Shown here: in pieces, positions 3,360-41,756 of the stretch
Layout of the letters: every line of letters starts with the position of its first letter
Numbering within the stretch: the first letter of the stretch is position 1
Source of the DNA: Nitrosomonas sp.
Lineage (GTDB): Bacteria; Pseudomonadota; Gammaproteobacteria; Burkholderiales; Nitrosomonadaceae
Direction: 5' to 3'
NCBI GenBank assembly: GCA_024281675.1
Contig: JAMXAG010000008.1
Location: 17,737-81,736, forward strand
Length of the DNA stretch: 64,000 nt
Made by a program: the position numbers and the translations under genes
The notes under the pieces: model-generated
The model's database searches: none
What the model was told of the DNA's origin: nothing
What the model saw: only the letters and a program-made list of their open reading frames with translations

Positions 3360-4913
3360 ATGACCGATCCCCTAATCATCGCCAAAGCGAACGACCATGA
3401 ACTGGCTCTGCTACCTGCTATGTCGAACCGACACGGTTGCATTACTGGCGCGACGGGTACTGGCAAAACAGTCACACTACAGAAACTGGCAGAGAGCTTT
3501 TCAAGTATCGGCGTGCCCGTATTTATGGCCGATGTCAAAGGTGATTTGAGCGGGATTTGTCGATCAGGAGCACTTACAGAAAAAATGAAAAAGCGGTTGG
3601 ATATGTTGCAGATCGATACACCAAGCTGGCAAGGCTACCCAGTCACACTATGGGATGTCTTGCAAGAAAACGGACATCCGGTTCGCGCGACTATTTCCGA
3701 TATGGGACCGTTATTGCTGGCACAATTATTGAACCTTAATGAAACACAAGAAGGCGTATTGGCACTGGTTTTTAAAATCGCCGATGACAATGGATTATTA
3801 CTGCTGGATTTGAAAGACTTACGTACATTATTGCAATTTGTCGGCGACAACGCGGCAGAATTCAAAACACAATACGGCAATGTTTCATCTGCTTCGATTG
3901 GCGCGATTCAACGCAGCTTATTGCAGATTGAACAACAAGGTGGTGACAAGTTTTTTGGCGAACCAATGCTAAACATCGAAGATTTGATGCAAACAATAGA
4001 CGGTAAGGGCATCATCAATATTTTAACCGCCGATAAGCTGCTTAACTCACCCAAATTATATAGTACCTTCCTGCTGTGGATGTTGTCGGAGCTATATGAA
4101 AACCTGCCCGAAACCGGTGATCGCGAACAACCCAAGCTCGTTTTCTTTTTTGATGAGGCACATTTACTATTCAGCACGGCAACACCCGCATTACTGGAAA
4201 AAATCGAACAAGTCGTACGTCTGATTCGCTCTAAAAGCATTGGTATTTATTTCGTAACACAAAACCCATTGGATATTCCAGAGAAAATCCTCGGTCAATT
4301 GGGTAATCGCATTCAACACGCATTACGCGCATTTACGCCGCGCGATCAGAAAGCTGTCGCCACAATCGCAGAAACCATGCGCCCGAATCCTGGACTCGAT
4401 ATCAAACAAGCCATTATGGAACTATCTGTCGGCGAAGCGCTGATTTCTTTTTTAGATACCAATGGATCACCCAGCATAACCAATCGCGCTTTCATTTTGC
4501 CCCCGACCAGCCAAATCGGGCCGATTACACCGGATGAACGCAAACAACTGATCGAGTCTTCTTTAGTTGCAGGTGTTTACGAGCAGACTGTGGATCGAGA
4601 AAGCGCTTTTGAAATGTTACAAGCACGCGCTGGTAGCACAGACAATTCCGAGAAATCATCGACAAAACAATTACCTAGTAATCAAGAAGAATCCAGTGGC
4701 AGTATTGGACAACAAGTAACCGAAGGTATTTTGGGAGGGCTTGGGAGTTTGGTATTCGGTTCGACAGGTAAGCGAGGCGGACATCACGATGGCATGATCA
4801 GTGCGTTTGCGAAGAGCGCCGCACGCTCGGTTGGAACATCAGTTGCACGCGAAATTACCCGCGGATTACTTGGATCATTATTGGGTAGCACAACTACCAA
4901 AAGAAAGCGCTAG
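3360..4913 (+). CDS. HerA-like P-loop ATPase (DUF853/YjgR family)
   Basis: [15 protein letters not shown] Walker [11 protein letters not shown] Walker [34 protein letters not shown]. Confidence 0.88.
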
Positions 4914-5028: not shown

Positions 5029-5763
5029 TTAATTTTTTAACATTTCTTGCTTGATCCTCCAACCTGGCAGGGCTGCGTCAAATATACGCACAGTATCCAT
5101 ACCGCCATTAAAAAAGGCTGCATCTTCAGGAGGAGGAATCGTCCTATGCTTAGCACCTATCGCCAGAGGTTCAGTATTAACGCAAACAGGTCCGGGAACA
5201 AGCACGGAAGATTTACCAGACAACACACCATTGATATATATCCTCAAGATCGCGCCATCATAAGTTGCTGCCACATGCGTCCATGTATTATCAGGCACGA
5301 CTTTATTACTATCCAGTATAAAATAGGAAGCACCATTGCGGCATCCTCCAAAAAAACCACCAACCCTTACCTTGCGAGTATTTTTTCTGATGTTAACCCA
5401 GAAAGAACCTGCTTTCTCCATCACTTCTTGCCTATCCCATGCGCTGGGCTTGAGCTTTATCCAGGCCATCACAGTATATTGATTAAAATCGAAAATAGGA
5501 TTGTCAGAAACCAGAATGAAATTATCAATCCCATTCAGTTTAAGGCCTCTTCCTCCACCAGCAACACCCGCTGCAAAATGCCAAGTGCCACCACCTTCAA
5601 TATCGCCATTGAGGTCATTTCCGCTGGTATCGGATGCGATCGATCCATTATCCGATGTAAATTTATATTCCAGAACCAAACTTCCCGAGAAAACAGAAAT
5701 TGGAAAAAACAAAAAAAGGAAAAACAAACCTGATCGCAAAAAAACGAATTTTCTATTATTCAT
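5029..5763 (-). CDS. Secreted LamG/concanavalin-A-like lectin domain protein
   Basis: Signal peptide; TVMAWIK, WTHVAATYDGAILRIYING, FNGGMDTVRIFDAAL typical of laminin-G-3 domains. Confidence 0.8.
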   Translation of the reverse strand: MNNRKFVFLRSGLFFLFLFFPISVFSGSLVLEYKFTSDNGSIASDTSGNDLNGDIEGGGTWHFAAGVAGGGRGLKLNGIDNFILVSDNPIFDFNQYTVMAWIKLKPSAWDRQEVMEKAGSFWVNIRKNTRKVRVGGFFGGCRNGASYFILDSNKVVPDNTWTHVAATYDGAILRIYINGVLSGKSSVLVPGPVCVNTEPLAIGAKHRTIPPPEDAAFFNGGMDTVRIFDAALPGWRIKQEMLKN

Positions 5764-5885: not shown

Positions 5886-6680
5886 TTAGTCACGAAGGTA
5901 TTGAACAGATACGGATTTGGAAGCATTTGGCCCAAGGGTTCCTAAATTATACTGAACCGTACTATCGAAATCTCCAAACACAGGGCCCGCAATTGCTTGG
6001 TCAGGTGGATTACAGCTAGTATTATTAAAGCTCACCACTTTAGCTTCAGAAACTGTTGTGGTTGGACTTTTTGTAATGTGTCTGAGTTTTACAGCAAAAG
6101 GAATTGCATCGGCCTTAGTTCCCCATGCTGAGACAGAGTCTCTGGTTGCATCATGCCACTCATCTATAGCAGAATTGATATCAACGGTGGCTAAACGTCG
6201 TAAAATTACACTATTAATATTCGCGCCAGTAAGATTTTTAACAGTCATCTTGATATTAAATGAACGATCGAAATTAGTTGGTTTAGAGAGCTCTTGAACC
6301 AAACTCATTTTTCCATCAGTGGTATTACGTGTCACTTTACAGGTATTTCCCACACAATTACAGGAAGCAGCACCAAACCCGCTATCTCCAAAACTGTTAC
6401 TATAACGCGCGGGAGAACCTGTATTACATAGTGTATACCCTTCATTGTACATATGATCCCCTTGATTCGAGCCTTGGAAAACCACAATGTTTCCTTCCTG
6501 GTTAATACTAACTTTAGGCGCCCCCGTAAAGGTTTTACATATGGCAGAAGCTGCGGCCATCATCTCAGTATCTTTTTGCCTTTTCTCTACACTGTTTTGC
6601 CCGGCATTAGCTGTTCCTGTAAGAACTAACAAGCTCATTGAAACTAATGCTAGCACTGATAATGCAATTGATTTATTCAT
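5886..6680 (-). CDS. Hypothetical secreted protein (Cys-containing, beta-rich)
   Basis: Long ORF; signal peptide MNKSIALSVLALVSMSLLVLTGTANA; no family recognised. Confidence 0.65.
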   Translation of the reverse strand: MNKSIALSVLALVSMSLLVLTGTANAGQNSVEKRQKDTEMMAAASAICKTFTGAPKVSINQEGNIVVFQGSNQGDHMYNEGYTLCNTGSPARYSNSFGDSGFGAASCNCVGNTCKVTRNTTDGKMSLVQELSKPTNFDRSFNIKMTVKNLTGANINSVILRRLATVDINSAIDEWHDATRDSVSAWGTKADAIPFAVKLRHITKSPTTTVSEAKVVSFNNTSCNPPDQAIAGPVFGDFDSTVQYNLGTLGPNASKSVSVQYLRD

Positions 6681-7080
6681 ATTATACCCCACCTTATTCT
6701 TGGAATTTTAATCTCGAGAAATCCATTACTGCTGCTTTTTATTACACAAAAAGCCAATCGACTCTAAAATATCCTATCGAAATGGTCAAATCTATTTGCT
6801 CCTGGGCATGTTGGCCCGAGATACAGTACATAAATACTAGGAGGCCTGTACAAAACGCAAGCCAGATCCGACTTTGTACCCGATTCGGTATAAGAATATA
6901 CCGTTGTAAGCATCATAAAATGATCAACAATCCTAAAAACCTCAATTGATCGCACAAATATAGGTGCGACAATTTGTCACATTCTATTTTTTTATAAATT
7001 GAAATATTCTTTTATCGCCATCCAAATGTGGAATGGAGATAAATAACATTCATCAATTAAAAGATAGGATTTCAATCAAA

Positions 7081-7824
7081 ATGATCAAAATCAGAAAAAC
7101 ACTTAGTCTCGTCAGTGCACTGAGTGCTTTGTTAGCTTTTAGCATGCCTGCAAGCGCCGTTTCGTCTGTCACGTATGCAGACCCTGTTCCATCGACCCCC
7201 GGTGCGTGTGATGGTGGTATTAGTTACGAATGGATGGCAAAAATGAGCGACAATCATACGATCAGCTTCGTCAATCATGTCGGTGCTAAAAGCTTTAACG
7301 AACCACCTCCAGCGTATGAACCCCCTTTCACTGGCTGGACTCACACCTCTAACTGGGTAGCGTTTGAGTTAACCAAAGATGCGCAGGTAGAAATCGAAGT
7401 CACGCGTCAAGAAGGCGTACCTTATACATCCGGCAGCACCGTTGCTACTGCGCGCAATAAACTAGTACCAGCATTTGCCATTTATTCAGGTTGGGATAAC
7501 ACCAGCTGCGAAGATCACCGTTACAATAATGCCGGTAACTTTGACTGGTCTAACATCAAATACATTACCAACACCCCGAATAAAGGCGGTTGGCCCAGTG
7601 TTACGCGCAAAATAAAACTGAAAGCGGGCAAGTATAGTATCGCCATTGGTGGCACACCAAAAGTTTTGGAAACTTATCCCGATGCAGCCACCTGTGATCC
7701 TGCTACCGATGCAGCTTGTTATGCCTATACCGGCAGGCACGGATATCGTGTGCGTGTAAAAACCAACCCATCCCGTTCGGAATCCGATAACGCAAGTACG
7801 AGCGGTAATTCCACCAACCAATAA
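7081..7824 (+). CDS. Secreted CorA/MopE-like copper(I)-binding protein (putative)
   Basis: Signal peptide ending in PASA; GWTHTSNW (W-x-H) motif and a second His 58 residues later (EDHRYNN); followed by a di-haem peroxidase gene, as in corA-corB and mopE-SACCP loci. Confidence 0.6.
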   Translation: MIKIRKTLSLVSALSALLAFSMPASAVSSVTYADPVPSTPGACDGGISYEWMAKMSDNHTISFVNHVGAKSFNEPPPAYEPPFTGWTHTSNWVAFELTKDAQVEIEVTRQEGVPYTSGSTVATARNKLVPAFAIYSGWDNTSCEDHRYNNAGNFDWSNIKYITNTPNKGGWPSVTRKIKLKAGKYSIAIGGTPKVLETYPDAATCDPATDAACYAYTGRHGYRVRVKTNPSRSESDNASTSGNSTNQ

Positions 7825-7840
7825 ATCTGGTTTAGCTCAG

Positions 7841-7866
7841 TAATCTCCGATTAATTTCGGAGATTA
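7841..7866 (+). terminator. Intergenic hairpin between the corA-like gene and the peroxidase gene
   Basis: taatctccga-ttaatt-tcggagatta, perfect 10-bp stem. Confidence 0.4.
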
Positions 7867-7980
7867 TATCCAATAATCATAGCATTAAATTTATCTTCTA
7901 TGGCTTCGTCGAGTTCAGTATGACATTTGACTTTGTTAGCCGAGCTTTTATTAAACATATCATATCAACAGTTACCACTT

Positions 7981-9858
7981 ATGTTTCGCAATCCTTCCTT
8001 CATCGCAGCTTTAATGATTTCAATTTGGGGTATTGGGGAAACACATGCTGCCGAAGACCCTGCACGACCACCTTCCCTAAAAACCATTTCGGTACCAGAG
8101 CCTGATAATCTAGATGATTTCATTATCAACAAACAAAAAGCTATAGAATTAGGCAAAGCTTTATTTTGGGAAATGCGTGTTGGCAGCGACGGCGTCACCG
8201 CCTGTGCCACGTGTCATTTTAATGCTGGCTCAGACAGCCGGTCTTTCAATCAAGTCAACCCAGGCTCAAATCGCGTTCACAGTGATGGCACGCCGGATGC
8301 CGATTTAACATTTGACTTCGGCCCTGCTCAACAATTGATGCGCGGCGATTTCCCTTTGCGCAAACTGAGCAACATCTCCGATCGGAGTTCACCTGTAATT
8401 TCAGACTCCAATGACGTGGTTTCTTCACAAGGCGTTCAAGCAGCAGTTTTTTTGTATACCGTGCGCGGCAAAAGCAAGGATGTAGTCACCCCCAAAATCG
8501 ATGCTGATGGTTTTCTCATTGACCACAAAAATGTCCGTCGTGTTGCGCCACGTAATGCACCCAGTATTATTAACGCAGTCTTTAATTTCAGAAACTTGTC
8601 CGATGGCAGCGCACAAAATGACTTCAATGGTGTAAACAAATGGGGAAGCCGTGACCCAAATGCAAAAGTTTACCGCGTGACTTCAAGCTCCAGCCAAATT
8701 GAAGCCGTAACAATCAGCATTAATAATGCTAGTACAGCCTCTCAAGCAGTAGCTCCTCCTGTTAGCGACCGCGAAATGAGCGCCACAGGCAGAACATTTC
8801 CAGACATTGGCCGAAAACTCATCAGCATGCGACCGCTGGCTCTACAGCAAGTACACCCACAAGACAGTGTTTTTGGTGAATACAGCCGTTGGCCACATTC
8901 CGGCTTAACCATCCCTTCCTATAAAAAAATGATCCAAGCGGCATTCCATCCACAATGGTGGGATTCTGAACAATTTATTCGTAATCTTGGGACGACGCCG
9001 AATATCGTAACGCATGGCAAACCACGATTTCCGAATGAATACAGCTTGATGGAATACAATTTCTCATTGTTTTTCGGTTTAGCCGTGCAAATGTATGTAT
9101 CTACATTGGTTGCCGATGATACGCCGTATGACCGCTTCATGATGGGAGATGCCTCAGCCATCAGTGCAGCCGCTATTCAAGGCGTCGATGTATTTCGCAG
9201 CCAAACACGCGGCCGGTGTATCAATTGTCATGAGGGTGCAGAATTAACCGGCGCATCAATCACCCGTGTAACAGCCAGTCCGGTAAGAGTTCGTGAGGAG
9301 CAGGCGTTTGATCGGGGTTTTAATCATATTGGCGTCCGACCAGCAACCGAAGATATCGGCTTAGGCGGCAAAGATCCTTTTGGCAAGGAATTATCGTATT
9401 CACGTCATCCTGCAACAGCGATACCTAATTGCGCCAATGGATTACCCTGCCCAGTCATAGCCGATGGATTCATCAAAGTTCCAGGGTTACGTAATATCGA
9501 ACTAACTGCGCCTTATTTCCACAATGGTGGCACTTTGACATTACGCGAGATACTAGATCTCTACAGTCGTGGCGGAAATTTTCACTCACTGGAACAACTC
9601 GATGGCTCAGAAATCGCAGGATTAAATATTCTATCGAATAGTGAGGAAGAAAAATCCAATCTTGAAGCATTTTTGCTGTCATTGACCGATGAAAGAGTAC
9701 GATTGCGCAAAGCACCGTTTGATCACCCGCAGTTACTGATTCCTATCAAAGATCATCATCTTCTGGATAAGCAAACCAACCATCATTCAGAGGCTTTTCT
9801 AAAAATCAATGCTGTGGGGAAAAATGGCGGAGTGCCTCTGAAACGATTCTTACAGTGA
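7981..9858 (+). CDS. Di-haem cytochrome c peroxidase, MauG/CorB/SACCP-like
   Basis: Two CxxCH motifs (CATCH, CINCH), LGKALFWEMR, RNAPSIINA, KVPGLRNIELTAPYFHNG; signal peptide; longest ORF starts at 7927. Confidence 0.9.
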   Translation: MFRNPSFIAALMISIWGIGETHAAEDPARPPSLKTISVPEPDNLDDFIINKQKAIELGKALFWEMRVGSDGVTACATCHFNAGSDSRSFNQVNPGSNRVHSDGTPDADLTFDFGPAQQLMRGDFPLRKLSNISDRSSPVISDSNDVVSSQGVQAAVFLYTVRGKSKDVVTPKIDADGFLIDHKNVRRVAPRNAPSIINAVFNFRNLSDGSAQNDFNGVNKWGSRDPNAKVYRVTSSSSQIEAVTISINNASTASQAVAPPVSDREMSATGRTFPDIGRKLISMRPLALQQVHPQDSVFGEYSRWPHSGLTIPSYKKMIQAAFHPQWWDSEQFIRNLGTTPNIVTHGKPRFPNEYSLMEYNFSLFFGLAVQMYVSTLVADDTPYDRFMMGDASAISAAAIQGVDVFRSQTRGRCINCHEGAELTGASITRVTASPVRVREEQAFDRGFNHIGVRPATEDIGLGGKDPFGKELSYSRHPATAIPNCANGLPCPVIADGFIKVPGLRNIELTAPYFHNGGTLTLREILDLYSRGGNFHSLEQLDGSEIAGLNILSNSEEEKSNLEAFLLSLTDERVRLRKAPFDHPQLLIPIKDHHLLDKQTNHHSEAFLKINAVGKNGGVPLKRFLQ

Positions 9859-9912
9859 AATAGGAATCATAGCTTCAATATTTTTTGCCAATAAAGGCCC
9901 CCCGTGAAGAAC

Positions 9913-28922: not shown

Positions 28923-30185
28923 ATGACTACACCCCAAACGCCTCCGCAAAAAATCACAAAATCCTATGTAGACAAATTGTCTACACCAGAAACCGGACAA
29001 GCCTTTATCCGTGATACCGAACTCAAAGGTTTCGCCGTGCGTATTACTTCATCCGGCGCAAAATCATTTATTCTCGAAAAGAGAATTGATGGCAAAGTGA
29101 AGCGATTAACGTTAGGCCGGTATCCTGAGCTAACTGTCGAACAAGCCAGAAAGGAAGCGCATAAATTACTTGGTCACATCGCTGTTGGCCGCAATCCCGC
29201 TGCCGAGAAAAAGCAGGAAGCGCTACAAGGCACCACATTAAAACAAGCCTTCGATGATTTCGTAAAGACGCGAAAAAATCTCAAGGAACGAACGCTCTAC
29301 GATTACCGGCGAGTAATGGCCGTCGTTTTTGCCGACTGGCAGGATAAAACGATAACCGGTATCAATAAGGACATGGTCAGCAAGCGCCATAACAAAATTG
29401 GGGCGGAAAGAGGGGAAGCCTATGCCAACCTGGCTATGCGCTTTTTACGTGCGCTGTTTAATTTTGCCATTGCACAATATGAGGATGGCAATGGACATTC
29501 AATATTACGGGAGAATCCCGTTATGCGTCTGACGCAAACCCGCGCATGGTATCGGGTAGATCGTCGCCAAACCGCTATCAAACCTCATCAACTTTCTCCT
29601 TGGTATGAAGCCGTGATGTCGCTTAAGCAAGATCAAATATCTAACCAATCTGCAATGGTAGCCGATTATCTTTTATTTCTTTTATTTACAGGTCTAAGAC
29701 GACAAGAAGCGGCAACGCTAAAATGGTCGAATATAGATTTGGATGATCGCTCTTTCACATTGACCGATACCAAGAATCGGGAACCTTTGACATTGCCGCT
29801 AACTGATTTTGTCTTCGATCTACTGCAAAGCAGAAAAGCCGTGACCGATTCTGAATATGTTTTTGCTGGGGATGGTAAAAAGGGATACTTGATTGAACCT
29901 CGCCGCCAAGTGCAAAAGGTCATTCAATTATCCGAAGTATCGTTCACACTACACGATCTACGCCGCACTTTTATCACGATTGCCGAAAGTATCGATATAT
30001 CCGCTTATGCACTTAAACGGCTGGTAAATCATAAAATGACCAACGATGTCACTGCTGGCTATATTATCAGCGATGTCGAACGCTTGCGAAAACCCATGCA
30101 ACAAATATCCTCCCAATTGCTTCGATATTTCAAAATCAAAGATGACAAGAAGATATTGCCATTTCAAAAGCACCAAAGCGCTTGA
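28923..30185 (+). CDS. Tyrosine recombinase/integrase with N-terminal arm-binding domain
   Basis: RDTELKGFAVR...RLTLGRYP arm domain; TGLRRQEA, LHDLRRTF, LVNHK...TAGY catalytic residues. Confidence 0.95.
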   Translation: MTTPQTPPQKITKSYVDKLSTPETGQAFIRDTELKGFAVRITSSGAKSFILEKRIDGKVKRLTLGRYPELTVEQARKEAHKLLGHIAVGRNPAAEKKQEALQGTTLKQAFDDFVKTRKNLKERTLYDYRRVMAVVFADWQDKTITGINKDMVSKRHNKIGAERGEAYANLAMRFLRALFNFAIAQYEDGNGHSILRENPVMRLTQTRAWYRVDRRQTAIKPHQLSPWYEAVMSLKQDQISNQSAMVADYLLFLLFTGLRRQEAATLKWSNIDLDDRSFTLTDTKNREPLTLPLTDFVFDLLQSRKAVTDSEYVFAGDGKKGYLIEPRRQVQKVIQLSEVSFTLHDLRRTFITIAESIDISAYALKRLVNHKMTNDVTAGYIISDVERLRKPMQQISSQLLRYFKIKDDKKILPFQKHQSA

Positions 30186-30209
30186 ATATAACATTTTATA
30201 ACTTATAAT

Positions 30210-30476
30210 ATGCACAATCCGTACAATTTATTGATCCGGCCGCAAGCCAAAAAGAAATTGCAAAGCCTGCCGAGAACGGATCGATTCAGGATTGCCGAAA
30301 AACTGGAACAGCTAGGTCGTAATCCTGATGACAGCTCACTGGATATCAAGAAATTGGAAGGTGAACCTTATTTTCGGTTAAGAGTTGGTAATTGGCGCAT
30401 TATTTTTGAACGGCACGATGCCGTTAGGATCATTGCCATTGAGAAAATTAAACCGCGTGGAGATGCATACAAATGA
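30210..30476 (+). CDS. RelE/ParE-family toxin
   Basis: AKKKLQSLP...IKKLEGEPYFRLRVGNWRIIF; 4-bp overlap with the antitoxin gene. Confidence 0.88.
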   Translation: MHNPYNLLIRPQAKKKLQSLPRTDRFRIAEKLEQLGRNPDDSSLDIKKLEGEPYFRLRVGNWRIIFERHDAVRIIAIEKIKPRGDAYK

Positions 30477-30805
30477 CACTGCAAAAAATAAAATCCATTC
30501 AAGGCAAAGACGAATATGTCCTGTTACCGATGGCGGTTTACCGTGCCTTGAAAGATCAGATCGAAAAGGAATTGGCAGCTTGCGAAGCAAATCAGAATGA
30601 CGAACAAACCTATGAACCGTTTGTGCTTGAGGACTATGTTGATAATCCCGTGGCGCTTGCGCGAATCAAAGCCGGTATTACACAAGAGCAATTAGCTCAG
30701 CGCCTAGGCGTCAGTCAAGCTTATGTTAGCCAAATTGAACGCCGCGACACCGTAACTAATAAGATGCTTGAACAAGTGCATTCGGCTATTCAGAGTAGTG
30801 ACTAA
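30473..30805 (+). CDS. XRE/HTH antitoxin
   Basis: ARIKAGITQEQLAQRLGVSQAYVSQIER. Confidence 0.88.
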   Translation: MTLQKIKSIQGKDEYVLLPMAVYRALKDQIEKELAACEANQNDEQTYEPFVLEDYVDNPVALARIKAGITQEQLAQRLGVSQAYVSQIERRDTVTNKMLEQVHSAIQSSD

Positions 30806-30854
30806 TACTCATCTTATTTTGTTCAATTTTCTTTGCCACCGCGAAGCGGGCTTG

Positions 30855-31029
30855 CCCTTGACAGGCTGCCACCGCTCAAGAAAATAACCAGGCAGGAAGG
30901 ATTGAAGCGCAATTACTTCTACGCACAAACTGACCACGCAAAACCGCAGTGACCTTGTTCCCCACCCGGCCACAAAACCTCAATCTTTCATACTAAACCA
31001 CACTTCGAGCGGCGGCAGCCTGTCAAGGG
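30855..31029. repeat. 23-bp inverted repeat pair enclosing 129 bp
   Basis: cccttgacaggctgccaccgctc (30855-30877) vs gagcggcggcagcctgtcaaggg (31007-31029), 22/23 complementary. Confidence 0.8.
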
Positions 31030-31125
31030 TGGCAAGTCAATCCGGCAAATCAAATACGAATTTTCTAAAGTGTTCAGATTATTGAACCGTCATTTGGCAT
31101 TATCTATCACTACGGAAAACTCACT

Positions 31126-31791
31126 ATGCATGTAGAAAATAGCCCTGACTTCAAAACTGTCTGGCAATTAGCGCATAACTGGATAGGCGCTGACCTGGAC
31201 AAGACCAATTTAAGCGCAATCTCACCTGAATTAAAAACAGCTATTCATCGCTTGATGCAGGCAATGTCAAGCATGGAAATTACCGGCAGATGGAAAGGGT
31301 TGCGAATCTTTATGGATAATTCCTTTCTCTCTTCACTTTTTGATCTTTATCACACCTTTAAATTTTATCAATGCTTCAGAAAAAACAAATTCGATAAAGA
31401 CTATCTAGATAACCTTTACATAAAGCGTAATGAAGTTTTAAGATGGTGCGAAAATATCATTTATTTAGATCCTCCACCCTGCTGGGCATTAAAAATAATA
31501 TCGTCTAAAAATGACATATCTGCTGAAGTTGAAGATACTGATGATGAGAACAATAGCTGGTACGATAAAATAACGAAGCGACGCAGACAAAGAATAGTCT
31601 GTATCGAATTAGCAAAGCAGCTCTGGGAGCAATATCCGGGCATAAGTTACGAAGAAATGCATAAGCATCCCACTATGCAACAATTGGGCTATTCATCTAC
31701 TTTTACCTTCAAATCTTTTAAGAATTTGGTTCGATTCGTTGCATCGGAACCCGCCCAGCTACCTGGAGCACCTGCAAAAACAAAGGAATAG
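31126..31791 (+). CDS. Hypothetical protein upstream of the excisionase
   Basis: 221-aa AT-rich ORF; no family recognised. Confidence 0.6.
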   Translation: MHVENSPDFKTVWQLAHNWIGADLDKTNLSAISPELKTAIHRLMQAMSSMEITGRWKGLRIFMDNSFLSSLFDLYHTFKFYQCFRKNKFDKDYLDNLYIKRNEVLRWCENIIYLDPPPCWALKIISSKNDISAEVEDTDDENNSWYDKITKRRRQRIVCIELAKQLWEQYPGISYEEMHKHPTMQQLGYSSTFTFKSFKNLVRFVASEPAQLPGAPAKTKE

Positions 31792-31904
31792 AAAATCATA
31801 ATTATTCCTAAAAAAATAAATATATTTCTATTTTTCTAGCATCTTTTTTTACACCATCATTTAATGCAAATTGATCTCGTATTCACTAACTTACGAGGTC
31901 AATC

Positions 31905-32099
31905 ATGCAAAACCCTTTACTCACGACTAAACAAGCCGCACAAATCTTAGGCGTCAGCACCGCATTCCTGGAGCGAGACCGCTGGGCTGGAGCGCGGGTG
32001 CCTTTCGTCAAAATAGGCTCACGGGCAGTTCGCTATCGCCATAGCGATCTGCTCGCCTATATTGAATCCTGTCTCTGTCAATCCACCAGTCAGTACTGA
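31905..32099 (+). CDS. AlpA/excisionase-like HTH protein
   Basis: [14 protein letters not shown]...[22 protein letters not shown]; 64 aa. Confidence 0.85.
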
Positions 32100-32107
32100 G
32101 GTGTATC

Positions 32108-33784
32108 ATGCATACGTCAGTACGTGATAGCCAAGAGCTACTTACTCCCAGCGAACAGATTGCAGAAAGTGTTTTAAGTTTACTGGATGAACCGAATAAC
32201 AGCGACAAGCGATGGCGTGCGCCCATATTCCAGAGACTCCCCAAACGCTTTGCTGAAAACGCTGCCTACGACTATAAAGAAACCTACATCTTTGAAGGCA
32301 GGCGCCATGCCAATCTCTTTCTACTCCAAACCTATGGGAAATCCAACAAACACAGCATTCCGCTCAATGCTAACGATGATGACCTGAAAGCGATATCTAA
32401 GCGTATCGTGACAGAAATCAAGGATTTTAGTAATTTCCTGCTCAATCGAACCGACAAAATAGCCAGCCTGCTGCACTATGCGCAAAAATATGACGTGAAT
32501 CTACCTTCTTTTGATAATCCAAATATCACAGAGAAAGGTATTTATACCCGCTTAACCGATGAAAACTGGTGGCTGCGCAGACTACGTAAAACCCATGCCA
32601 GGAATCTGGAACAAGAAGCGATTCGAACCGGTTTCGTGCATCAGCGTAAAGGCAAGTACGTCAGCGATGAAACCCTGCAACGGCGTAGAGAACAGAAAAA
32701 ACGCAACCAGCGCATCCTTGAAGGATTGCTGATGATCAATGAGCTGGATGAAGGCTTCACACTCAGCGAACTGGCAGAACATAGCTTAGCTAATCCGCAT
32801 GTACGACGCAGTGAATTGATGGTACGCCTATTCGGATTTGAATTCATTGCCAACGAATTGGGACATGTTGGCGAATTCTATACCATCACTTGTCCATCCA
32901 AAATGCATGCCCGGCATTCCGGCAGCGGTGAACGTAATTCTAAATATGACGGCACCACACCGGAACAGGCGCAAAAGTATCTCAATACGGTCTGGGCAAG
33001 AATTCGCGCAAAACTGAAGCGGGATCATCTAGAAATTTATGGTTTCCGAATTGCCGAACCACAACATGATGGTACACCGCACTGGCACATATTGTTATTC
33101 ATGCCACCCGAACAAACTGCAAAGGTTCAGGCTATCATTCGGCATTACGCCCTGCAAACCGATGGCGATGAACCGGGCGCAAATGAACACCGTTTCAACA
33201 CAACCCCCATTGATAAAAGCAAAGGTACCGCCGTCAGTTATGTCGCGAAATACATTTCAAAAAACATCGACGGCCACGGCCTTGAACAGGATATTGACGG
33301 CAGCCCGATACAAGAAGCGGCTGAACGGGTGGAAGCCTGGGCTTCAACTTGGAGCATTCGACAATTCCAACAAATTGGCGGCGCACCTGTCAGCATTTGG
33401 CGGGAACTCAGAAGAATCCACGATGCACCTGAAGGCATCCTTGAACAAGCACGAAAAGCAGCCGACCAGAAAGAATGGTGGAAATTCATTCAGTTGATGG
33501 GCGGTATAACTTCTAAACGAAAAGACAATCCCATCAAGTTACTGAAAATAGAATCTAAAGAGCTAGGAAAGTATGGCGATCCGATAGGACAAAAAATCTG
33601 TGGCGTAAAAACTGATTCCATCCAGCTACCAACCCGTTTGCATCAATGGCGTATTGAAAAATGTGCAGTGAACACAGAACAGACTGAACGGCGAAGCGCA
33701 AAGCGCCCGAGTAGGAGCGGCAGCGACCGCGAGGTCGCATTTGCGGCGCAGCCGCCTTGGAGTTCTGTCAATAACTGTACGTAA
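32108..33784 (+). CDS. Rolling-circle replication endonuclease (phage P2 gpA-like, HUH)
   Basis: [27 protein letters not shown] (HUH), [12 protein letters not shown] (YxxxY), [18 protein letters not shown]; ends PWSSVNNCT. Confidence 0.92.
33723..33778 (+). other. Putative rolling-circle origin/nick site within the rep 3' end
   Basis: Two GC hairpins (gcgacc-gcga-ggtcgc; gcggc-gca-gccgc) followed by CCTTGGAGTTCTGTCAATAACTG, resembling the P2-family ori as recalled. Confidence 0.6.
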
Positions 33785-34377: not shown

Positions 34378-36804
34378 GCGGATATGGTTCTGAAATATAG
34401 GCTTGGCTTAGACGTAGGCACTGCATCAGTTGGTGCTGCGGCGGTATCTCTAGATAAAGATGGGCAACCGGATACACTGATCTGGCATCACGTGCGAATT
34501 TTCAATGAACCGTTAGAGAATGCACAAGGCACACTGGTTTCGAAGAAATCTGGACGGCGAAAAGCGCGGATGCAGCGTCGCCAGATTGACCGCCGTGCTT
34601 CACGCTTGCGGCGCATTGCAAATCTCGCCAGTTTGCTCGGACTAAAACGCGAAGAAATCGCACCCGATAATGGCAGCACTCTACCCTATCTGCGCGCTCA
34701 AGCTGCAACCGAGCACGTCGAGCTTGATGATTTATTGCGCATCTTCCTACGGCTATCCAAACGACGCGGGTACAAGGGTGAATTCAAAGCCAAGAAAAAA
34801 GGCGAGGTCGCAGAAGGTTCCAGCGAACTCAGCCTTGCCATGAGAACCCTTGCTACAGAATGCGCCATTTTGTTCAAGGATGAAAACGATACTGGCATCA
34901 CCATTGGGCAATATTTGCTGCATCGCATGGAAAGTGGCTTACCAACCAAGCTCAAAGTAAAAGAAATCAGCGATGAACCTAAGAATAAAAAAAATGAGGG
35001 CGCGAACACACCAAAGAATTTATACGCACTTCGCAAAATGATCGAGTATGAATTCAACACCATCTGGGATACGCAAGCCAAACATCATGACATCCTCAAC
35101 GGAACTCACGAAGACAAGCCGATACGCGAACACTTCCATGAAGCGCTGTTCTACCAGCGCCCGCTAAAATCGGCTACCGACTTGGTTGCGCGATGCGAGC
35201 TTGAACCAACGCTATCACGTGCACCACGTGCGCAAATGGCCTTTCAACGCTTTCGCATTGAAAAGACGCTGGCAGATTTACGTTGGGGCGCTGGTAAACG
35301 CGCCGAACCAATCACATCGCATCAAAAGCAAGTCATCAGAAACTTGCTTGACCACAATGACAAAGTGAAATTCGATGACATCTATGAAGCGCTAGAAAAT
35401 GCAGATTGTGTAAAACCACAAGGCAAAGGACTAAACCTTGACCGTGCCAGTCGCGAAGAGCTGCTTGGGAACAGTACGCTGGCAGCACTACGCAAACTGG
35501 ATAAACATAGTACAAAAAATCATCCAGAACGCGCTGCCAATCTTGAACAAGCCTTCTGTGCTCTGGATGAAAAAACACAAATCGCTGTCATCAATTTTCT
35601 GGCAGAACTCGGCTCACCTGAACAGCTAGATGATCCAGAGTGGCATACCAGCTTCGTCAAGCGCGATGGCAAGCCGCGCCAATTCAGCGAGCCTTTGATC
35701 GTCTTCATCAACTGTATTAAGGAACACGATAATTTCGACCGGTTAAGCAAAATGGATTTCGATGGTGGGCGAGCTTCTTATTCCGTCAAAGCCTTAAACA
35801 ATCTTGCTGACTGGCTAGAAGAGCCAAACTGGCCGGGCGATTGGCAAGACGATATGAAACGCATGGATGAAGAAGCTGCCATTCGCGTGTGTTACCCGAA
35901 ATCGCTTAACTGCGAAATCAAACGCATGGAGAAACTGCCCGTACCTGAATCTACCGGTAATGCTGTGGTGGATGGTTCGCTTCGTCAGATCCGCTGGACA
36001 GTGAACAAGATGATTGATGAACTTGGCGCTCCACCTAATGAGATCGTGGTGGAAATGGCACGCGAGATGAGCTTAGGCATCAGCCGCCGCAATGAGCGCG
36101 AAAGTGATAACAGCGCACAACAACGTGCGCGCAAACATGCTGAAAGTGTAATCCGAAATTCCGGTGGAGTACCAACACCATCCAAGATTCGTCGTTATCT
36201 TTTGCTACAAGAACAGGATACTCATTGCCCTTATTGCGAAAACAAAATTGGGTTGCCGGATGCTCTATCTGGCGCAACGGAATATGAACACATTATTCCG
36301 AAATCGCTTACGCAAGTTGGCATGAAGCGTTCTGAAATTGTGTTGGCGCATCACGCCTGCAATCAGGAGAAAGATGATCGCACGCCATGGGAAGCATGGG
36401 GGAACAGCCCGCGTTGGGTGCATATTGAGAAGGCAGCAGAGCGCTTTGAGAAGAAAAAACAATTTCGCAAAGCCAAGCTGCTACGCCTTAAAGACTTTGA
36501 GCGTGAAGTATTGACCGATGAATCTGTGAGTGGTTTTGCAGACCGTCAGTTTCATCAAACCTCATGGATAGCAAAAGAAGCTGCACAATGGCTGGAATGC
36601 CTATGCCCTCATAAAGTTTCTGTTTCGCGTGGTGAACTAACATCCATGCTACGCCGCAGTTGGAAACTGGAAACCGTAATCCCAGAGGTTCGCATCGAAA
36701 ACAGCCTGCCCCTGCTGGATACCGAAGGAAAGCTGATTGAGCAAAATGATTTTGACAGACTCAAGAAATACTGAGGTATGTTGTCAAAAATGGAGTCCAT
36801 AGGT

Positions 36805-37710
36805 TTAAGCAGCGAGTAGATTTGCATAGTACTGCTGCGAAAATTGTGCAGGCGATAAATAACCTAATTTTTCTTGCTTGCGCTGTCGGTTATAGAATAT
36901 TTCGATATATTCGGTAATCTCCTGAATGGCTTGTTGCCGTGTTTTGAATCTCCGATGATGCACCAGTTCGGTTTTAAGTATCCCCCAGAAGCTTTCCATC
37001 GGCGCATTATCATAGCAGTCGCCCTTGCGGCTCATGGAGGCGATCATGCCAAATTGTTGCAATAAATTCCGGTAATCGTGTGCACAGTATTGACTACCTT
37101 GATCTGAATGAGCAATGAGCCCCTTATCCGGATGTTTATTTGCAGTTGCGCGAAATAATGCCTGTATAACCAGGCTCTTTGTCATTTTCTCATTCATGGC
37201 ATAGCCCACCAGTTCGCCATTAAATAGATCTTTTATTCCAGCCAAGTACAACCAGCCCTCATCTGTAGGAATATAAGTGATGTCACTGACCCACACTTTA
37301 CCAGGTGCATTAACAGAAAATTCCCGTTTCAGAATATTGGGCGCAACCGGTAAATTATGTTTAGAATCGGTCGTCACCTTGAATTTTAGCTTTTGCTTAC
37401 AACGCAAACCCAATTTCCTGCGCAATGTTCGAACACGGTATGGTGTGGCTTGTACTCCGTGATCCGCCAAATCATGATGCAAGCGCTTTGCACTGTAGGT
37501 CTCTCGTGTACGTTGGTGTGCGGCCAGTATTTCTATTTCCAGCCTTCTATTCTCCCGCTTACGTTTACAAAGCGGGCGCGTTCTTTGAGCATGAAAGCCG
37601 CTCTCGGAAACATTCAATACTCGACACATGAGCCCAATCGAATAGCTTCGTCGCATCGATTCAATCAAACCGTATCTCACCGCGACTCCTTGGCGAAATA
37701 CGTCGCACAC
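36805..37710 (-). CDS. IS3 transposase OrfB (DDE integrase core)
   Basis: WVSDITYI, HSDQGSQY, SRKGDCYDNAPMESFW, YIEIFYNRQR. Confidence 0.93.
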   Translation of the reverse strand: MCDVFRQGVAVRYGLIESMRRSYSIGLMCRVLNVSESGFHAQRTRPLCKRKRENRRLEIEILAAHQRTRETYSAKRLHHDLADHGVQATPYRVRTLRRKLGLRCKQKLKFKVTTDSKHNLPVAPNILKREFSVNAPGKVWVSDITYIPTDEGWLYLAGIKDLFNGELVGYAMNEKMTKSLVIQALFRATANKHPDKGLIAHSDQGSQYCAHDYRNLLQQFGMIASMSRKGDCYDNAPMESFWGILKTELVHHRRFKTRQQAIQEITEYIEIFYNRQRKQEKLGYLSPAQFSQQYYANLLAA

Positions 37711-37976
37711 TTTTTTATAAAATCACGCTCCATCTTCACTTCTGCTAATTCACGTTTAACTCTGGATAGCTCTAACTCAAGTTCAGTCAGCGGCTTATGA
37801 TGCTTGCCTACTGTAATGAGTTCTCCTCGTTTGTCAGCATAAACCCAATTCTTTAGTGTCCCCTGGGGTAACGACAGCCGTTTTGCTGCTTCAACCAGAG
37901 TCAATCCGCTTTCTTTGAAAAATTTAACTGATTCCTTCCGAAATTCCTGACTATATTGTGTGCGGGGTAATTCCAT
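37677..37976 (-). CDS. IS3 transposase OrfA (HTH)
   Basis: YSQEFRKESVK...AAKRLSLPQGTLKNW...LKRELAEVKMERDFIKK; -1 overlap with OrfB. Confidence 0.9.
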   Translation of the reverse strand: MELPRTQYSQEFRKESVKFFKESGLTLVEAAKRLSLPQGTLKNWVYADKRGELITVGKHHKPLTELELELSRVKRELAEVKMERDFIKKCATYFAKESR

Positions 37977-39063
37977 TTTCATCCTCCATTTCATGTCTTC
38001 ATTTTATGAAACTTCGGACTCCTTGAAAATCAGCATACCTCATACCTTGAAGGACATCCGGTCAGGAGTGAAGACCGCAAAGCAAACCCCGACTTCGATT
38101 TCAACCGTCGCCCAGACAAACGTCTCGATCATCGCCATCACCTGATTGATGCGATTACACTGGCATTGACCTCGCGCAGTTTGTTTCAGCAAATGGCGAA
38201 GAAATACAAAACTGCCGCCGAAAAGATGCAAACGTGTGAGGGAGAAACACAGGAAGAACGCGAACGCCGCATCAAGAATGAAACACGGCTGCGACTTGAA
38301 GTGCCTGAACCGCCTTTTCGCAATGTGCGTGCTGCTGCACTTGATGCCATGCGCGAGTGCAATATTTCTATAAAACCGGATCGCTACCCTGATGGTGCAC
38401 TGTTCAAGGATACAGCCTACGGAATAGCGCAGCGAGATGGTGAAGACAGGTTACGACTTACTCTACGCCAGCCCGTCGCTGGATTGGGCAAGGTTCAAGG
38501 AAAAACAAATTTAGAGGCCGCGCGTAAAGCCATTGCAAAAATCATCAGCAATGACGTGCAGTGTATTGTTACCGACACATTTGAGGATCGCATTGCTAGG
38601 GGCATGGAAGCTGGAGATGCACTTGCTTTGCCTATCCGGCATCCGCTCTATGATAAACCAATTCGCAAAGTGCGTTGCTTTGAAACCTATGCAGAAGATG
38701 CACAACCCATTGGCTTCAACAGCCGCCGCGGTGAGCACCGCAAATATCTTATCAATGCAGGGTATGCCTATTTGGAGCTTTACACCGACAGATCAAGAGA
38801 ACCCCGACTTGTGAAAATCCGTGATGCGATGCGAAAAAAAGGAACGCCTACTCCCCAAAATGCAAAGTGGATTTACAAAGGAGATGTTGTAAAGGATTCT
38901 AAAGATAATAAACTCTATCGAGTGGGCTACTTCAAGTCTGAAGGAGTTATTGCTCTCATTCCAATTTTCGACCCACGCTCATTCGACAAAATTTCAGAAA
39001 GTAATGCTGGAAAGAAAAAAATTGCGTTTACTCAAGCTGCAAAACGTTTAACACTGATTAACG

Positions 39064-40011
39064 ATGTCTGAACAGCGCATCCTCGTCATCGAAAATCCCG
39101 CCCACCTGCGCATAGACACGGGGCGGTTGAAAATTGAGCGTGACGGTTTTGACCATGTATTTGTCTCGCCTGATGATGTGGCAGTACTTTGCCTCGAACA
39201 CCACACAGTCACACTCTCAGTCGCCGTCTTGCGTGCACTTGCCGAAGCCGGAGCAGCAGTGATGGTCACCGATACGCGACACATGCCTTGCGCCATGCAG
39301 ATTCCGCTCGCCGCCACAGGCTTGGATGCGGGTAGGCTGCGTCAGCAAATTGCACTGGATACCAGCGAGAAACGTGGCGAGTTATGGCAACAATTGATCT
39401 CCACAAAGTTATCTATGCAGGCTCACGCCTTGCGCGGGCTGCAACGTAAGGGAGCATTGCGCCTGGAGCGTCTCGCAGCACAAGTGCAACATAACGACAA
39501 AAGCAACGCGGAAGGTCAAGGTGCAAAACACTATTGGAATAACCTGTTCCCAGAGACTTTTAAGCGCAGCAAGGAAGGTGCAGAAGACCCACTGAACGTT
39601 CGCCTCAACTATGGCTATGCTGTGCTGCGCGCCATGATTGCCCGCTCGTTGGTTTCAGCCGGACTCAATGGCACATTGGGCTTGGGACATCGCAATGCGG
39701 GCAATGCATTCAACTTGGCGGACGACTTCATTGAGCCGTATCGCTTTCTGGTGGATGTGCATCTGGCTGATGATGCCGATACCTGGAGTGAAGCGCCAGA
39801 ATTTGACAGCCGCGCCAAGCGCTATTTGCTTGGATTCGTCAAACGTCCTGTGCGCATGGCGGGGCAGGATATGCGGCTGCACGCCGCAATTGATACGAGT
39901 ATCGTCAGCTTCGTGCGTATTCTTGAAGGCAAAGGCAAAAAGCTGGTGCTTCCCGAAGGACTGGTTATTGATAGGGATAATAAGGAATGGCAATCAACGG
40001 ATGGCGCGTAA
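39064..40011 (+). CDS. cas1: Type II CRISPR-associated endonuclease Cas1
   Basis: EGQGAKHYW, NVRLNYGYAVLRA, LGLGHRN, NLADDFIEPYR; overlaps the cas9 stop. Confidence 0.95.
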   Translation: MSEQRILVIENPAHLRIDTGRLKIERDGFDHVFVSPDDVAVLCLEHHTVTLSVAVLRALAEAGAAVMVTDTRHMPCAMQIPLAATGLDAGRLRQQIALDTSEKRGELWQQLISTKLSMQAHALRGLQRKGALRLERLAAQVQHNDKSNAEGQGAKHYWNNLFPETFKRSKEGAEDPLNVRLNYGYAVLRAMIARSLVSAGLNGTLGLGHRNAGNAFNLADDFIEPYRFLVDVHLADDADTWSEAPEFDSRAKRYLLGFVKRPVRMAGQDMRLHAAIDTSIVSFVRILEGKGKKLVLPEGLVIDRDNKEWQSTDGA

Positions 40012-40319
40012 TGTGGGTGATTGCAGTTTATGATTGCCCGATGATAGAACGTGAGGAACGGCGCGATTACACGCTGTTCCGCAAAAGCCTGTTGCAAGAA
40101 AATTTCTTCCAGTTGCAAAACTCGCTCTATGTGCGCCACTTCCCTACCATGGCGGTTGCCGAAGCCACGATACAGCGCATCCGTTTAGGCATCCCAGCAG
40201 GTGCACAAGTGGCATTTTTCCTCGTAACTGATAAACAGTACGCGATGACTAGAGAGTTTTTTGGTAATCGACCCACAAAGAAAAAGCCCAATTTGCCAGA
40301 GCAAATCGAGCTTTTTTAA
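39987..40319 (+). CDS. cas2: CRISPR-associated Cas2
   Basis: MWVIAVYDCP...FRKSLLQENFFQLQNSLYVR...VTDKQY; no csn2 or cas4 follows, so type II-C. Confidence 0.93.
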   Translation: MAINGWRVMWVIAVYDCPMIEREERRDYTLFRKSLLQENFFQLQNSLYVRHFPTMAVAEATIQRIRLGIPAGAQVAFFLVTDKQYAMTREFFGNRPTKKKPNLPEQIELF

Positions 40320-40358
40320 AATTATTTAATTTTAAAAACAACTGACTATATACAATCT

Positions 40359-41516
40359 AGTTTATCAGGTATTCCGATGGTGGGGTGTCGGAACTCGTTG
40401 AGTATTATGAAGCCACACATTGGTAGTTTATCAGGTATTCCGATGGTGGGGTGTCGGAACAAATAATCCTGCCTATATGAAAAATGTTTAAGTTTATCAG
40501 GTATTCCGATGGTGGGGTGTCGGAACGAAAAAATGCGCCGATATCACCAACTCTAAAGTTTATCAGGTATTCCGATGGTGGGGTGTCGGAACAATAGCCG
40601 ATAAGGTAATACCGGCTATTGAAGTTTATCAGGTATTCCGATGGTGGGGTGTCGGAACATGAATCGAGAGATGAAGCGGTATGCTGGAAGTTTATCAGGT
40701 ATTCCGATGGTGGGGTGTCGGAACCTGTCTTTCGCTGTTATTTCAATCCGTGTTAGTTTATCAGGTATTCCGATGGTGGGGTGTCGGAACGAATAACAAT
40801 TGGTATGTCTGCACCCTCAGAGTTTATCAGGTATTCCGATGGTGGGGTGTCGGAACGCGAGCGTGATGTTAGCTACGGCATCGCCGAGTTTATCAGGTAT
40901 TCCGATGGTGGGGTGTCGGAACATTTAAACCCCCATGAGTCTGAGTGAAAATAGTTTATCAGGTATTCCGATGGTGGGGTGTCGGAACCTGTAACCCTAG
41001 ATGGTAAAAGTGTATCTTAGTTTATCAGGTATTCCGATGGTGGGGTGTCGGAACGTAGAGGGTGAGGTAGAACTACAGGAAAATAGTTTATCAGGTATTC
41101 CGATGGTGGGGTGTCGGAACTACCTTCGCAAGCATCCTTTTTGTTCTCATAGTTTATCAGGTATTCCGATGGTGGGGTGTCGGAACCACTAACTGTAGCT
41201 GACTCAGGCGACGTGTAGTTTATCAGGTATTCCGATGGTGGGGTGTCGGAACACACATTATTGGCTACTCTTAAACTTGAAGAGTTTATCAGGTATTCCG
41301 ATGGTGGGGTGTCGGAACATAGTTTCGTGCGTTTCAACCGCTTGAATCAGTTTATCAGGTATTCCGATGGTGGGGTGTCGGAACACCAAGCTATGACTGG
41401 TCATGCCCGGTGAGAGTTTATCAGGTATTCCGATGGTGGGGTGTCGGAACCATCGCTAGCCGTTAAATCCTCCTCCTCGAAGTTTATCAGGTATTCCGAT
41501 GGTGGGGTGTCGGAAC
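40359..41516 (-). CRISPR. CRISPR array: 18 identical 36-bp repeats, 17 spacers of 30 bp
   Basis: Plus-strand repeat agtttatcaggtattccgatggtggggtgtcggaac with an exact 66-bp period. Predicted sense strand is minus (GTTCCGAC...TGATAAACT), from tracrRNA pairing and the embedded extended -10. Confidence 0.99.
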
Positions 41517-41756
41517 AATACCGTCGATGGAATAAATAGCCGTTCGCAGCGCTCGGAATTAATAGTGAGAGATTTCTAGAGGTTCCAGATTTTATCGGAA
41601 AGATGAAGTACCAAATAAAGAAAGCGCAAATTAGTACCAAATAGGGCGATTTGTTATAGAGATTACTTATCTTTTTCGTATGTTCAGTCTATTATCTACA
41701 TTATGCCTACATCTAAATGTTATAAGATTATTATCTTATGCAACCTATAGATTCTA

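Follow-up and report, generated by a model that had tools for sequence, protein, structure and literature searches.

A putative copper-handling gene pair in Nitrosomonas, divergently related to the corA-corB pair of methanotrophs

We analysed a 64,000-nt stretch of DNA (hereafter the window) from Nitrosomonas sp. (assembly GCA_024281675.1, contig JAMXAG010000008.1, positions 17,737-81,736, forward strand) and found that it carries two adjacent open reading frames (ORFs), ORF A and ORF B, which by sequence comparison are both homologous to the corA-corB (mopE-SACCP) pair of methanotrophs. CorA and MopE, extracellular proteins dedicated to copper, have so far been treated as methanotroph features; the homology suggests that a Nitrosomonas bacterium probably has a copper-handling system hitherto studied only in methane oxidisers. 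In the scheme that we favour, the small protein encoded by ORF A is exported, the di-haem enzyme encoded by ORF B oxidises its Trp86 to kynurenine, and the modified site holds copper(I) for capture or handling in the envelope. Drawing on sequence homology and on analogy with characterised systems, we put the probability of this whole scheme at roughly 70%.

Copper supply to ammonia monooxygenase (AMO) in ammonia-oxidising bacteria is poorly understood. If the scheme is correct, the pair would give those Nitrosomonas species that carry it a candidate copper-acquisition system open to testing, and kynurenine-based copper sites would extend to nitrifiers. It would also offer natural MauG-like variants without the inter-haem Trp, as well as candidate operators with which to trace a copper regulator for genes of the corA type. 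Full-text literature searches turned up no paper that connects Nitrosomonas or comammox Nitrospira with CorA or MopE, and in public records these genes bear no annotation other than 'hypothetical protein' and 'cytochrome c peroxidase'. One published survey of CorA and MopE across methane and ammonia oxidisers used BLAST and would for that reason miss the ORF A subfamily.

Kinship of ORF A with CorA and MopE

An earlier note on this DNA had pointed to a CorA/MopE-like secreted protein with a W-x-H motif and a distal His, and had put the second His of the known copper sites at 60-70 residues from the first. The motif and the distal His of ORF A, as read from the sequence, lie exactly where the note placed them, and the kinship was borne out as homology by the comparisons described below. 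The spacing needed correcting: it is 50 residues in CorA (ligands Kyn62, His64 and His114; PMC3912023) and 71 in MopE* (ligands Kyn130, His132 and His203; PMC3423442), the form released from the much larger MopE by cleavage of its N-terminal domain. At 58 residues, the distance from His88 to His146 of ORF A fits between these known cases.

We compared the ORF A family, as a profile, with the PDB and found that its best two matches were CorA (4bz4) and MopE (2vov). The match to CorA had an expectation (E) value of 7e-4 with profile A1 and of 1e-12 with profile A2, which represents more distant members and contains a CorA-like fragment that inflates the N-terminal part of its score. GWTHTSNW of ORF A was aligned with GWTHHSNW of CorA and GWTHTGKW of MopE, the motif falling on G61-W62-T63-H64 of CorA, and profile A2 carried the alignment on to CorA H114, paired with the invariant His of the family. 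A classic CorA set (A3) was assembled from seven sequences found in a metagenome scan seeded with a 66-residue CorA fragment from the PDB alignment; the CorA of one locus, L085, is nearly identical to the Methylomicrobium album protein across the PDB fragment. Alignment of A1 with A3 in hhalign gave a probability of 96.5% (E = 8.9e-10, 122 columns), in a register that places W86, H88 and H146 on W62, H64 and H114 of CorA and AGKYSIAIGG on NGWYQFAVGG. A profile was needed to see this relationship, as phmmer with the single ORF A sequence found no match in the PDB. A database search with the 66-residue CorA fragment returned only one fragment of 90 amino acids (aa).

The AlphaFold2 model of ORF A was an all-beta sandwich (predicted local distance difference test (pLDDT) 85, predicted template modelling score (pTM) 0.80). 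In the comparison with the CorA and MopE* structures that the earlier note had proposed, CorA 4bz4 was the top PDB match in Foldseek (E = 7e-7), as it was in the profile search, and MopE 2vov was found at rank 16. The fold match of the model alone would not have been decisive for kinship with CorA, because unrelated beta-sandwich domains follow CorA closely in Foldseek.

A database search recovered 102 clusters of ORF A homologues, none annotated beyond 'hypothetical protein'; about 10 of them carry a precomputed PF18252 (Cu_bind_CorA) assignment. When relatives of ORF A were compared with this model, 36 of 44 matched it at E <= 0.01, the best at 3e-8. The 44-sequence alignment of the family, which reaches down to 29% identity, has 14 invariant columns, and W86, T87, H88 and H146 are among them. 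A PEP-CTERM sorting signal is present at the C-terminus of five of the 44 members, and ORF A itself has a Ser/Asn-rich tail and extra Cys residues relative to CorA. Its N-terminus (MIKIRKTLSLVSALSALLAFSMPASA, followed by VSS) resembles a Sec signal peptide, as judged by reading the sequence.

The bare pattern is not significant alone: a six-frame reading of the window gives 39 ORFs with 200 aa or more, of which 5 contain W-x-H and 2 contain W-x-H with a His 50-71 residues further on. What lifts the ORF A motif above chance is its invariance, together with the in-register profile homology to CorA and the conserved adjacency of a di-haem gene. On this evidence we regard ORF A as a distant homologue of CorA and MopE that belongs to a divergent, separate subfamily. 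By homology with CorA and MopE*, residues W86, H88 and H146 would form a mononuclear copper(I) site.

ORF B as a CorB-type di-haem enzyme

The earlier note had also described a di-haem peroxidase-family gene after the secreted protein and had taken it for the MauG-like CorB/SACCP partner, and our results agree with both statements. ORF B has two CxxCH haem-binding motifs and scores 58.1 bits against PF03150 (CCP_MauG), over the cut-off of 25.6. A di-haem gene of 709-712 aa lies directly downstream in each of the classic corA loci, and residues 33-623 of ORF B could be aligned with the 709-aa CorB-type protein beside the corA gene of L085 (L085:4174-6300) at 34% identity (E = 7e-98). Long inserts that double the size over ordinary peroxidases are common to the two proteins. 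Their NCBIfam pattern is also the same: the MbnH model TIGR04039, the best NCBIfam model for ORF B, gave 102.2 bits with ORF B and 102 bits with the L085 protein.

Tyr528 of ORF B aligns with a Tyr of MbnH (6e1c) and, ungapped, with Tyr294 of MauG. In the peroxidases of N. europaea, Shewanella and Geobacter (1iqc, 3o5c, 6fu3) the same position is occupied by Met, a haem axial ligand. Tyr528 was invariant in 28 locus-derived and 34 database homologues. ORF B is predicted to be exported and to act as a MauG/MbnH-type enzyme, with one haem His/Tyr-ligated through Tyr528. The AlphaFold2 model of ORF B, with a pLDDT of 68.7, was of low confidence and was poor near the haem sites; its Foldseek matches, with MbnH first, were at family level only (TM-score <= 0.33) and cannot separate the MbnH, MauG and peroxidase types.

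ORF B resembles the canonical di-haem cytochrome c peroxidases, such as that of N. europaea (1iqc), in its two CxxCH motifs and in the PRN..INA and LRN..APYFH segments. A canonical reading was nevertheless rejected, given Tyr528 in place of Met, Ser207 in place of Trp94 and a length of 625 as against ~320 aa. Membership of the MbnP/MbnH families was likewise rejected: the score of ORF B with TIGR04039, like that of the CorB-type L085 protein, is far under the cut-off of 362.85, and ORF A had no NCBIfam match at E <= 1 (TIGR04052/TIGR04039).

Both genes are under purifying selection. Relative to the orthologues in Nitrosomonas GW-Mt58 (L001), the ratio of non-synonymous to synonymous substitution rates (dN/dS) was 0.10 for ORF A and 0.075 for ORF B, with dS saturated in each comparison.

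Conservation and distribution of the pair

ORF A and ORF B lie on the same strand with a gap of 156 nt. We scanned one genome per GTDB species for A-like proteins (A and B standing here for the homologues of ORF A and ORF B) and found them at 116 loci. A B orthologue directly follows A in the closest 17 loci, all but L014 (L001-L013 and L015-L017). These loci stem from Methylococcaceae and Methyloglobulus, from Nitrosomonas metagenome-assembled genomes (MAGs), and from one MAG each of Chromatiales, Deltaproteobacteria and Binatia. The Nitrosomonas carriers in the scan are all MAGs. The same arrangement was seen at L088, which belongs to Nitrosomonas sp. JL21 (GCA_016791245.1), a genome without a MAG prefix in its source name. 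Nitrospira loci have one to three tandem A-like genes beside one or two B-like genes, and these include MAG UW-LDO-01, described as a comammox bacterium (PMC5596200). In a neighbour-joining tree of B, calculated without support values, the Methylococcaceae sequences were placed inside a paraphyletic Nitrosomonas group, which hints at exchange between the two guilds.

The A-like genes of Verrucomicrobia, cyanobacteria and Pirellulales often form tandem or multi-domain arrays. In Verrucomicrobia (L040-L079) and in proteins P0103-P0109, the A-like domains are either spread over three genes in tandem or repeated 3-5 times within one protein. Such multi-domain proteins reach 1547 aa, and the GWTH motif is kept in each repeat.

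Candidate regulatory elements

The sole conserved block in an upstream alignment of five Nitrosomonas loci was a 7-3-7 palindrome, TGCGACAATTTGTCACA. The pattern was found upstream of A in all Nitrosomonas loci (L001, L005, L009, L012, L013 and L088), JL21 included, and within the window the copy before ORF A is the only such site at up to 3 mismatches. Judged by this conservation, the palindrome is likely to be a regulator-binding site. A possible -10 box was seen downstream of it; in the alignment it corresponds to TATAAT of L001 and to TATTAT of L005 and L009. A scan for consensus promoters and terminators gave none above shuffle expectation and did not call this box. The one 'terminator' of the same scan, on the minus strand (6981-6965), was rejected, as it is the palindrome itself.

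The intergenic region between ORF A and ORF B has a fold z-score of -3.0 and contains a stem-loop. We found an equivalent hairpin after the A stop codon in six Nitrosomonas loci, with compensatory changes at 6 of the 11 base pairs, and the element is probably an attenuator or an mRNA-stability element.

Methanotroph-type loci (L002, L003, L007, L008, L010 and L015) have the palindrome TGTGTCATATGACACA in two or three copies, ~100-300 nt upstream of A. The copies at Methylococcaceae-type A loci take the form TGTG(T/G)CATATG(A/C)CACA, and a sigma-54-like promoter element, TGG(C/T)A-N6-TTGC, comes after the palindrome at the methanotroph-type loci and reads TGGCA-N6-TTGC at the Methylococcaceae-type ones. 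The same TGTGTCATATGACACA palindrome and the same kind of sigma-54-like element were found upstream of classic corA at L082, L084, L085 and L086. This suggests that one enhancer-binding regulator serves the A family and classic corA in gammaproteobacterial methanotrophs. Expression of corA is copper-repressed experimentally (PMC3912023), and the shared upstream elements are thus independent but indirect evidence that the A family belongs to the same physiological response as corA. The Nitrosomonas palindrome has a half-site related to that of the methanotroph palindrome and a different spacing; a sigma-54-like element like that of the methanotroph and classic corA loci could not be found before the A genes of Nitrosomonas.

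Related elements were also seen beside other genes. At L012 (Nitrosomonas sp. EsbW), a second MauG-like di-haem gene and a gene for a secreted 252-aa protein are divergent from A-B (L012:3168-5857). The second di-haem protein is shorter, at 480 aa, and also has ...EFY... where the ligand is expected; the 252-aa protein matched no family in Pfam or NCBIfam. Extra Nitrosomonas palindromes, at 4086-4100 and 5826-5840 of L012, precede the di-haem gene and the gene for the 252-aa protein, and the two may be another substrate/maturase pair of the same regulon. At L081, a methanotroph palindrome (1122-1137) lies ~210 nt upstream of a 450-aa ORF (1350-2702), on a contig that also has a classic corA-like gene; this ORF may be a further regulon member.

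Comparison with known systems

CorA/CorB of Methylomicrobium album BG8 (4bz4; PMC3912023) is the closest counterpart, a small secreted protein followed on the same strand by a long di-haem enzyme, with the W-T-H...H residues of ORF A falling on Kyn62, His64 and His114 of the CorA triad. ORF B has in common with the CorB-type enzymes, besides its near full-length similarity, the Tyr ligand and a C-terminal APFDHP region. ORF A is, however, only ~18% identical to CorA in the structural alignment, ORF B is ~85 residues shorter than the CorB-type enzyme and is without the Trp of FWDGR, and the host of the pair is a betaproteobacterial ammonia oxidiser. MopE/SACCP of Methylococcus capsulatus Bath (MCA2589/MCA2590; 2vov; PMC3423442) likewise combines the GWTH motif with a partner di-haem gene, and MopE is the second-best PDB profile match of ORF A, though the similarity is weaker than to CorA and the second His is more distant.

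MbnP/MbnH (7L6G, 6e1c) offers the parallel of a MauG-like di-haem enzyme encoded beside a periplasmic protein whose Trp becomes a copper-site kynurenine. MbnH is the best match of the C-terminal haem domain of ORF B, and the Tyr ligand is common to both; MbnP, by contrast, has a different fold, and ORF A has no similarity to it and lacks its WxW motif and its His/Met ligands. MauG, the tryptophan tryptophylquinone maturase, belongs to the same di-haem family and acts on the Trp of a separate protein, as we propose for ORF B. Similarity to MauG is nonetheless low, with an E value of about 2e-3. ORF B exceeds MauG in length by 250 residues and is without the inter-haem Trp (Trp93 of MauG), and there are no methylamine dehydrogenase genes near it.

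Proposed mechanism and alternatives

We propose that 6965-9858 is a two-gene operon, a divergent homologue of the methanotroph corA-corB pair. ORF A would be exported via its Sec signal peptide and would fold as a beta-sandwich, and ORF B, predicted to be exported, His/Tyr-ligated and MauG-like, would oxidise Trp86 of ORF A to kynurenine. The kynurenine, His88 and His146 would then hold one copper(I), as in CorA and MopE*. This modification would enable ORF A to take up copper(I) on the cell surface or within the periplasm, and ORF A would serve copper acquisition or handling in the envelope. A regulator would act through the upstream palindrome, and the intergenic hairpin would probably let the structural protein ORF A exceed its maturase ORF B. 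We infer kynurenine formation, copper(I) binding, copper-responsive control and supply to AMO. For the chemistry there is a precedent, as MbnH makes the kynurenine of MbnP (PMC11951088), and it is from this precedent that a maturase role for CorB-type enzymes, unproven for CorA and MopE, is argued.

Several observations weigh against this scheme. ORF A itself scores 20.6 bits against PF18252 (E = 3.7e-4), under the cut-off of 27 and over residues 61-109 only, and pairwise BLAST with CorA aligned a 24-residue motif region only. The NGFDRDG segment, invariant in classic CorA, lies in a gap of the ORF A family; a structural calcium site is common to CorA and MopE*, and the segment may be linked to that site. 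The Foldseek TM-scores with CorA were moderate (0.44/0.54), and generic beta-sandwich domains, including carbohydrate-, collagen- and claudin-binding ones, came close to CorA in score and E value. The low Pfam score and these Foldseek matches, together with the PEP-CTERM tails and multi-domain surface arrays of some relatives, would suit a non-copper surface protein (such as an adhesin, or a protein that binds some other ligand or metal) in which the conserved Trp and His are structural. We consider this very improbable: exactly the three copper-site residues of CorA are among only 14 invariant columns, in register with CorA, and the partner gene is of the CorB type. The enzyme raises a separate difficulty, as ORF B has Ser207 in place of the inter-haem Trp and Ser210 in place of the following Arg. 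The position of Ser207 is occupied by Trp in CorB-like, Nitrospira and Binatia homologues and by S, N, L, M, Y or F in a Nitrosomonas/Methylococcaceae subclade, and at least 10 independent sequences have the LSDGS form seen in ORF B. In MauG-type enzymes this Trp carries charge from one haem to the other, probably by hole-hopping, and its loss from ORF B is for that reason unexplained. In addition, the enzyme behind the kynurenine of CorA and MopE is still given as undetermined (PMC11951088), and knocking out the CorB homologue of M. alcaliphilum left the expected phenotype in place, function being retained (PMC3912023). The A-like genes of Verrucomicrobia, cyanobacteria and Pirellulales had no B within 6 kb. 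ORF A might then bind copper through its His pair, any kynurenine forming by another route, with ORF B acting as a peroxidase or an electron-transfer partner, for instance in copper(II) reduction or in peroxide removal at the cell surface. The MbnH/MbnP precedent for the reaction, the tight A-B adjacency kept across four phyla and the invariance of Tyr528 at the MauG/MbnH ligand position, which is Met in canonical peroxidases, make such a non-maturase role for ORF B decidedly unlikely.

The purpose of copper binding can also be questioned. A-like genes without B nearby occur in bacteria without a copper monooxygenase, and the presence of such genes in Verrucomicrobia, cyanobacteria and Pirellulales weakens the link to AMO. 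Adjoining ORF A-ORF B we found no amo, hao, copCD, copper-uptake or transporter gene, and the context of the cassette differs among Nitrosomonas genomes. The pair might accordingly serve copper sequestration, detoxification or envelope storage and not scavenging under scarcity, with no specific link to AMO. However, the A+B form is concentrated in Nitrosomonas, Methylococcaceae and Nitrospira, one of the Nitrospira MAGs being comammox; CorA and MopE are produced when copper is low, and growth of a corA mutant is poor (PMC3912023); and the methanotroph members have the upstream elements of copper-repressed corA. On balance we find a storage or detoxification role unlikely, and we prefer the scheme in which kynurenine-bound copper(I) is acquired or handled in the envelope.

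A broader reading of this preferred scheme is possible but doubtful. The pair would be the first example of a second, so far overlooked kynurenine/copper(I) subfamily with its own CorB-type maturase. Members of the subfamily would be found, in part through horizontal transfer, in each of the three guilds of bacteria dependent on copper membrane monooxygenases (gammaproteobacterial methanotrophs, Nitrosomonas and comammox Nitrospira), and a copper-responsive regulator would act through the conserved TGYGNCA palindromes. The Nitrosomonas/Methylococcaceae maturase would work without the inter-haem Trp, by a mechanism unlike the MauG paradigm.

Genome context

Sequences that share 90% identity or more with ORF A and ORF B have the names of Nitrosomonas MAGs, which makes the description of the host as a probable ammonia oxidiser in the earlier note a reasonable one. 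No amo gene is present in the whole 64-kb window, which apart from the pair carries ordinary chromosomal genes, among them glucokinase, holA, lptE, leuS and chemotaxis genes. The flanks of the pair vary among Nitrosomonas genomes and contain no copper genes; the match between this genome and Nitrosomonas GW-Mt58 is limited to the cassette (6962-9866), and the flanks differ. The GC content of the cassette (45.1%) equals that of the window (45.8%) and therefore gives no compositional sign of recent transfer. The features of the cassette and its upstream neighbours are collected in Table 1.

Table 1. Features of the ORF A-ORF B cassette and the genes upstream of it (window positions)
Feature	Position	Strand	Remarks
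ORF A, 247-aa predicted secreted CorA/MopE-like protein of a divergent subfamily	7081-7824	+	
Predicted Sec signal peptide of ORF A, 26 aa	7081-7158	+	Ends ASA, then V; read from sequence; homologues start at the same Met
Trp86-Thr87-His88	7336-7344	+	TGG 7336-7338, ACT, CAC 7342-7344; aligned with CorA Kyn62-T63-His64
His146	7516-7518	+	CAC; aligned with CorA His114, the second copper ligand
ORF B, 625-aa long di-haem MauG-like enzyme, CorB/SACCP type	7981-9858	+	ATG 7981, stop 9856-9858
Signal-like sequence at ORF B N-terminus	7981-8049	+	
Haem-binding motif 1, C75-A-T-C78-H79 (CATCH)	8203-8217	+	Invariant in homologues
Ser207, at inter-haem Trp position	8599-8601	+	W94 of canonical peroxidases, FWDGR in CorB-like; alignment to 1nml
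Haem-binding motif 2, C413-I-N-C416-H417 (CINCH)	9217-9231	+	Invariant in homologues
Tyr528, axial-ligand position	9562-9564	+	PDB alignments
Palindrome TGCGACAATTTGTCACA (7-3-7, 17 nt), candidate operator	6965-6981		~100 nt upstream of ORF A start
Possible -10 box, TATTCT	7005-7010	+	Weak inference, upstream alignment
Stem-loop between the genes	7840-7867	+	11-bp stem, core UCUCC/GGAGA, no T-tract after it
244-aa secreted Laminin_G_3/concanavalin-like protein	5029-5763	divergent from ORF A	
268-aa secreted protein	5886-6692	divergent from ORF A	No Pfam or NCBIfam family

Two secreted proteins are divergently encoded upstream of ORF A, and neither was found beside the pair at other loci. Elsewhere in the window, a TetR-family regulator (50446-51048, minus strand) is divergent from a heavy-metal P-type ATPase (51756-54104) with YHS and HMBD metal-binding domains. 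The ATPase is a possible copper exporter, and no copy of the Nitrosomonas palindrome was seen in its vicinity.

A type II CRISPR-Cas locus was found at 34384-41546. Its Cas9-like ORF of 796 aa, with an alpha-helical lobe, HNH and RuvC-III, looks short for Cas9. It is followed by an insertion sequence transposase of the rve family on the opposite strand (36805-37710) and then by Cas1 (39064-40011). The CRISPR array (40359-41546) has at least 18 copies of the 36-nt repeat AGTTTATCAGGTATTCCGATGGTGGGGTGTCGGAAC, with spacers of 30 nt. Between an ArsA-like ATPase gene and this locus lie two phage-type genes, one for an integrase (28923-30185) and one for a replication protein of the phage GPA family (32108-33784), and the region 28923-33784 is probably a small integrated element.

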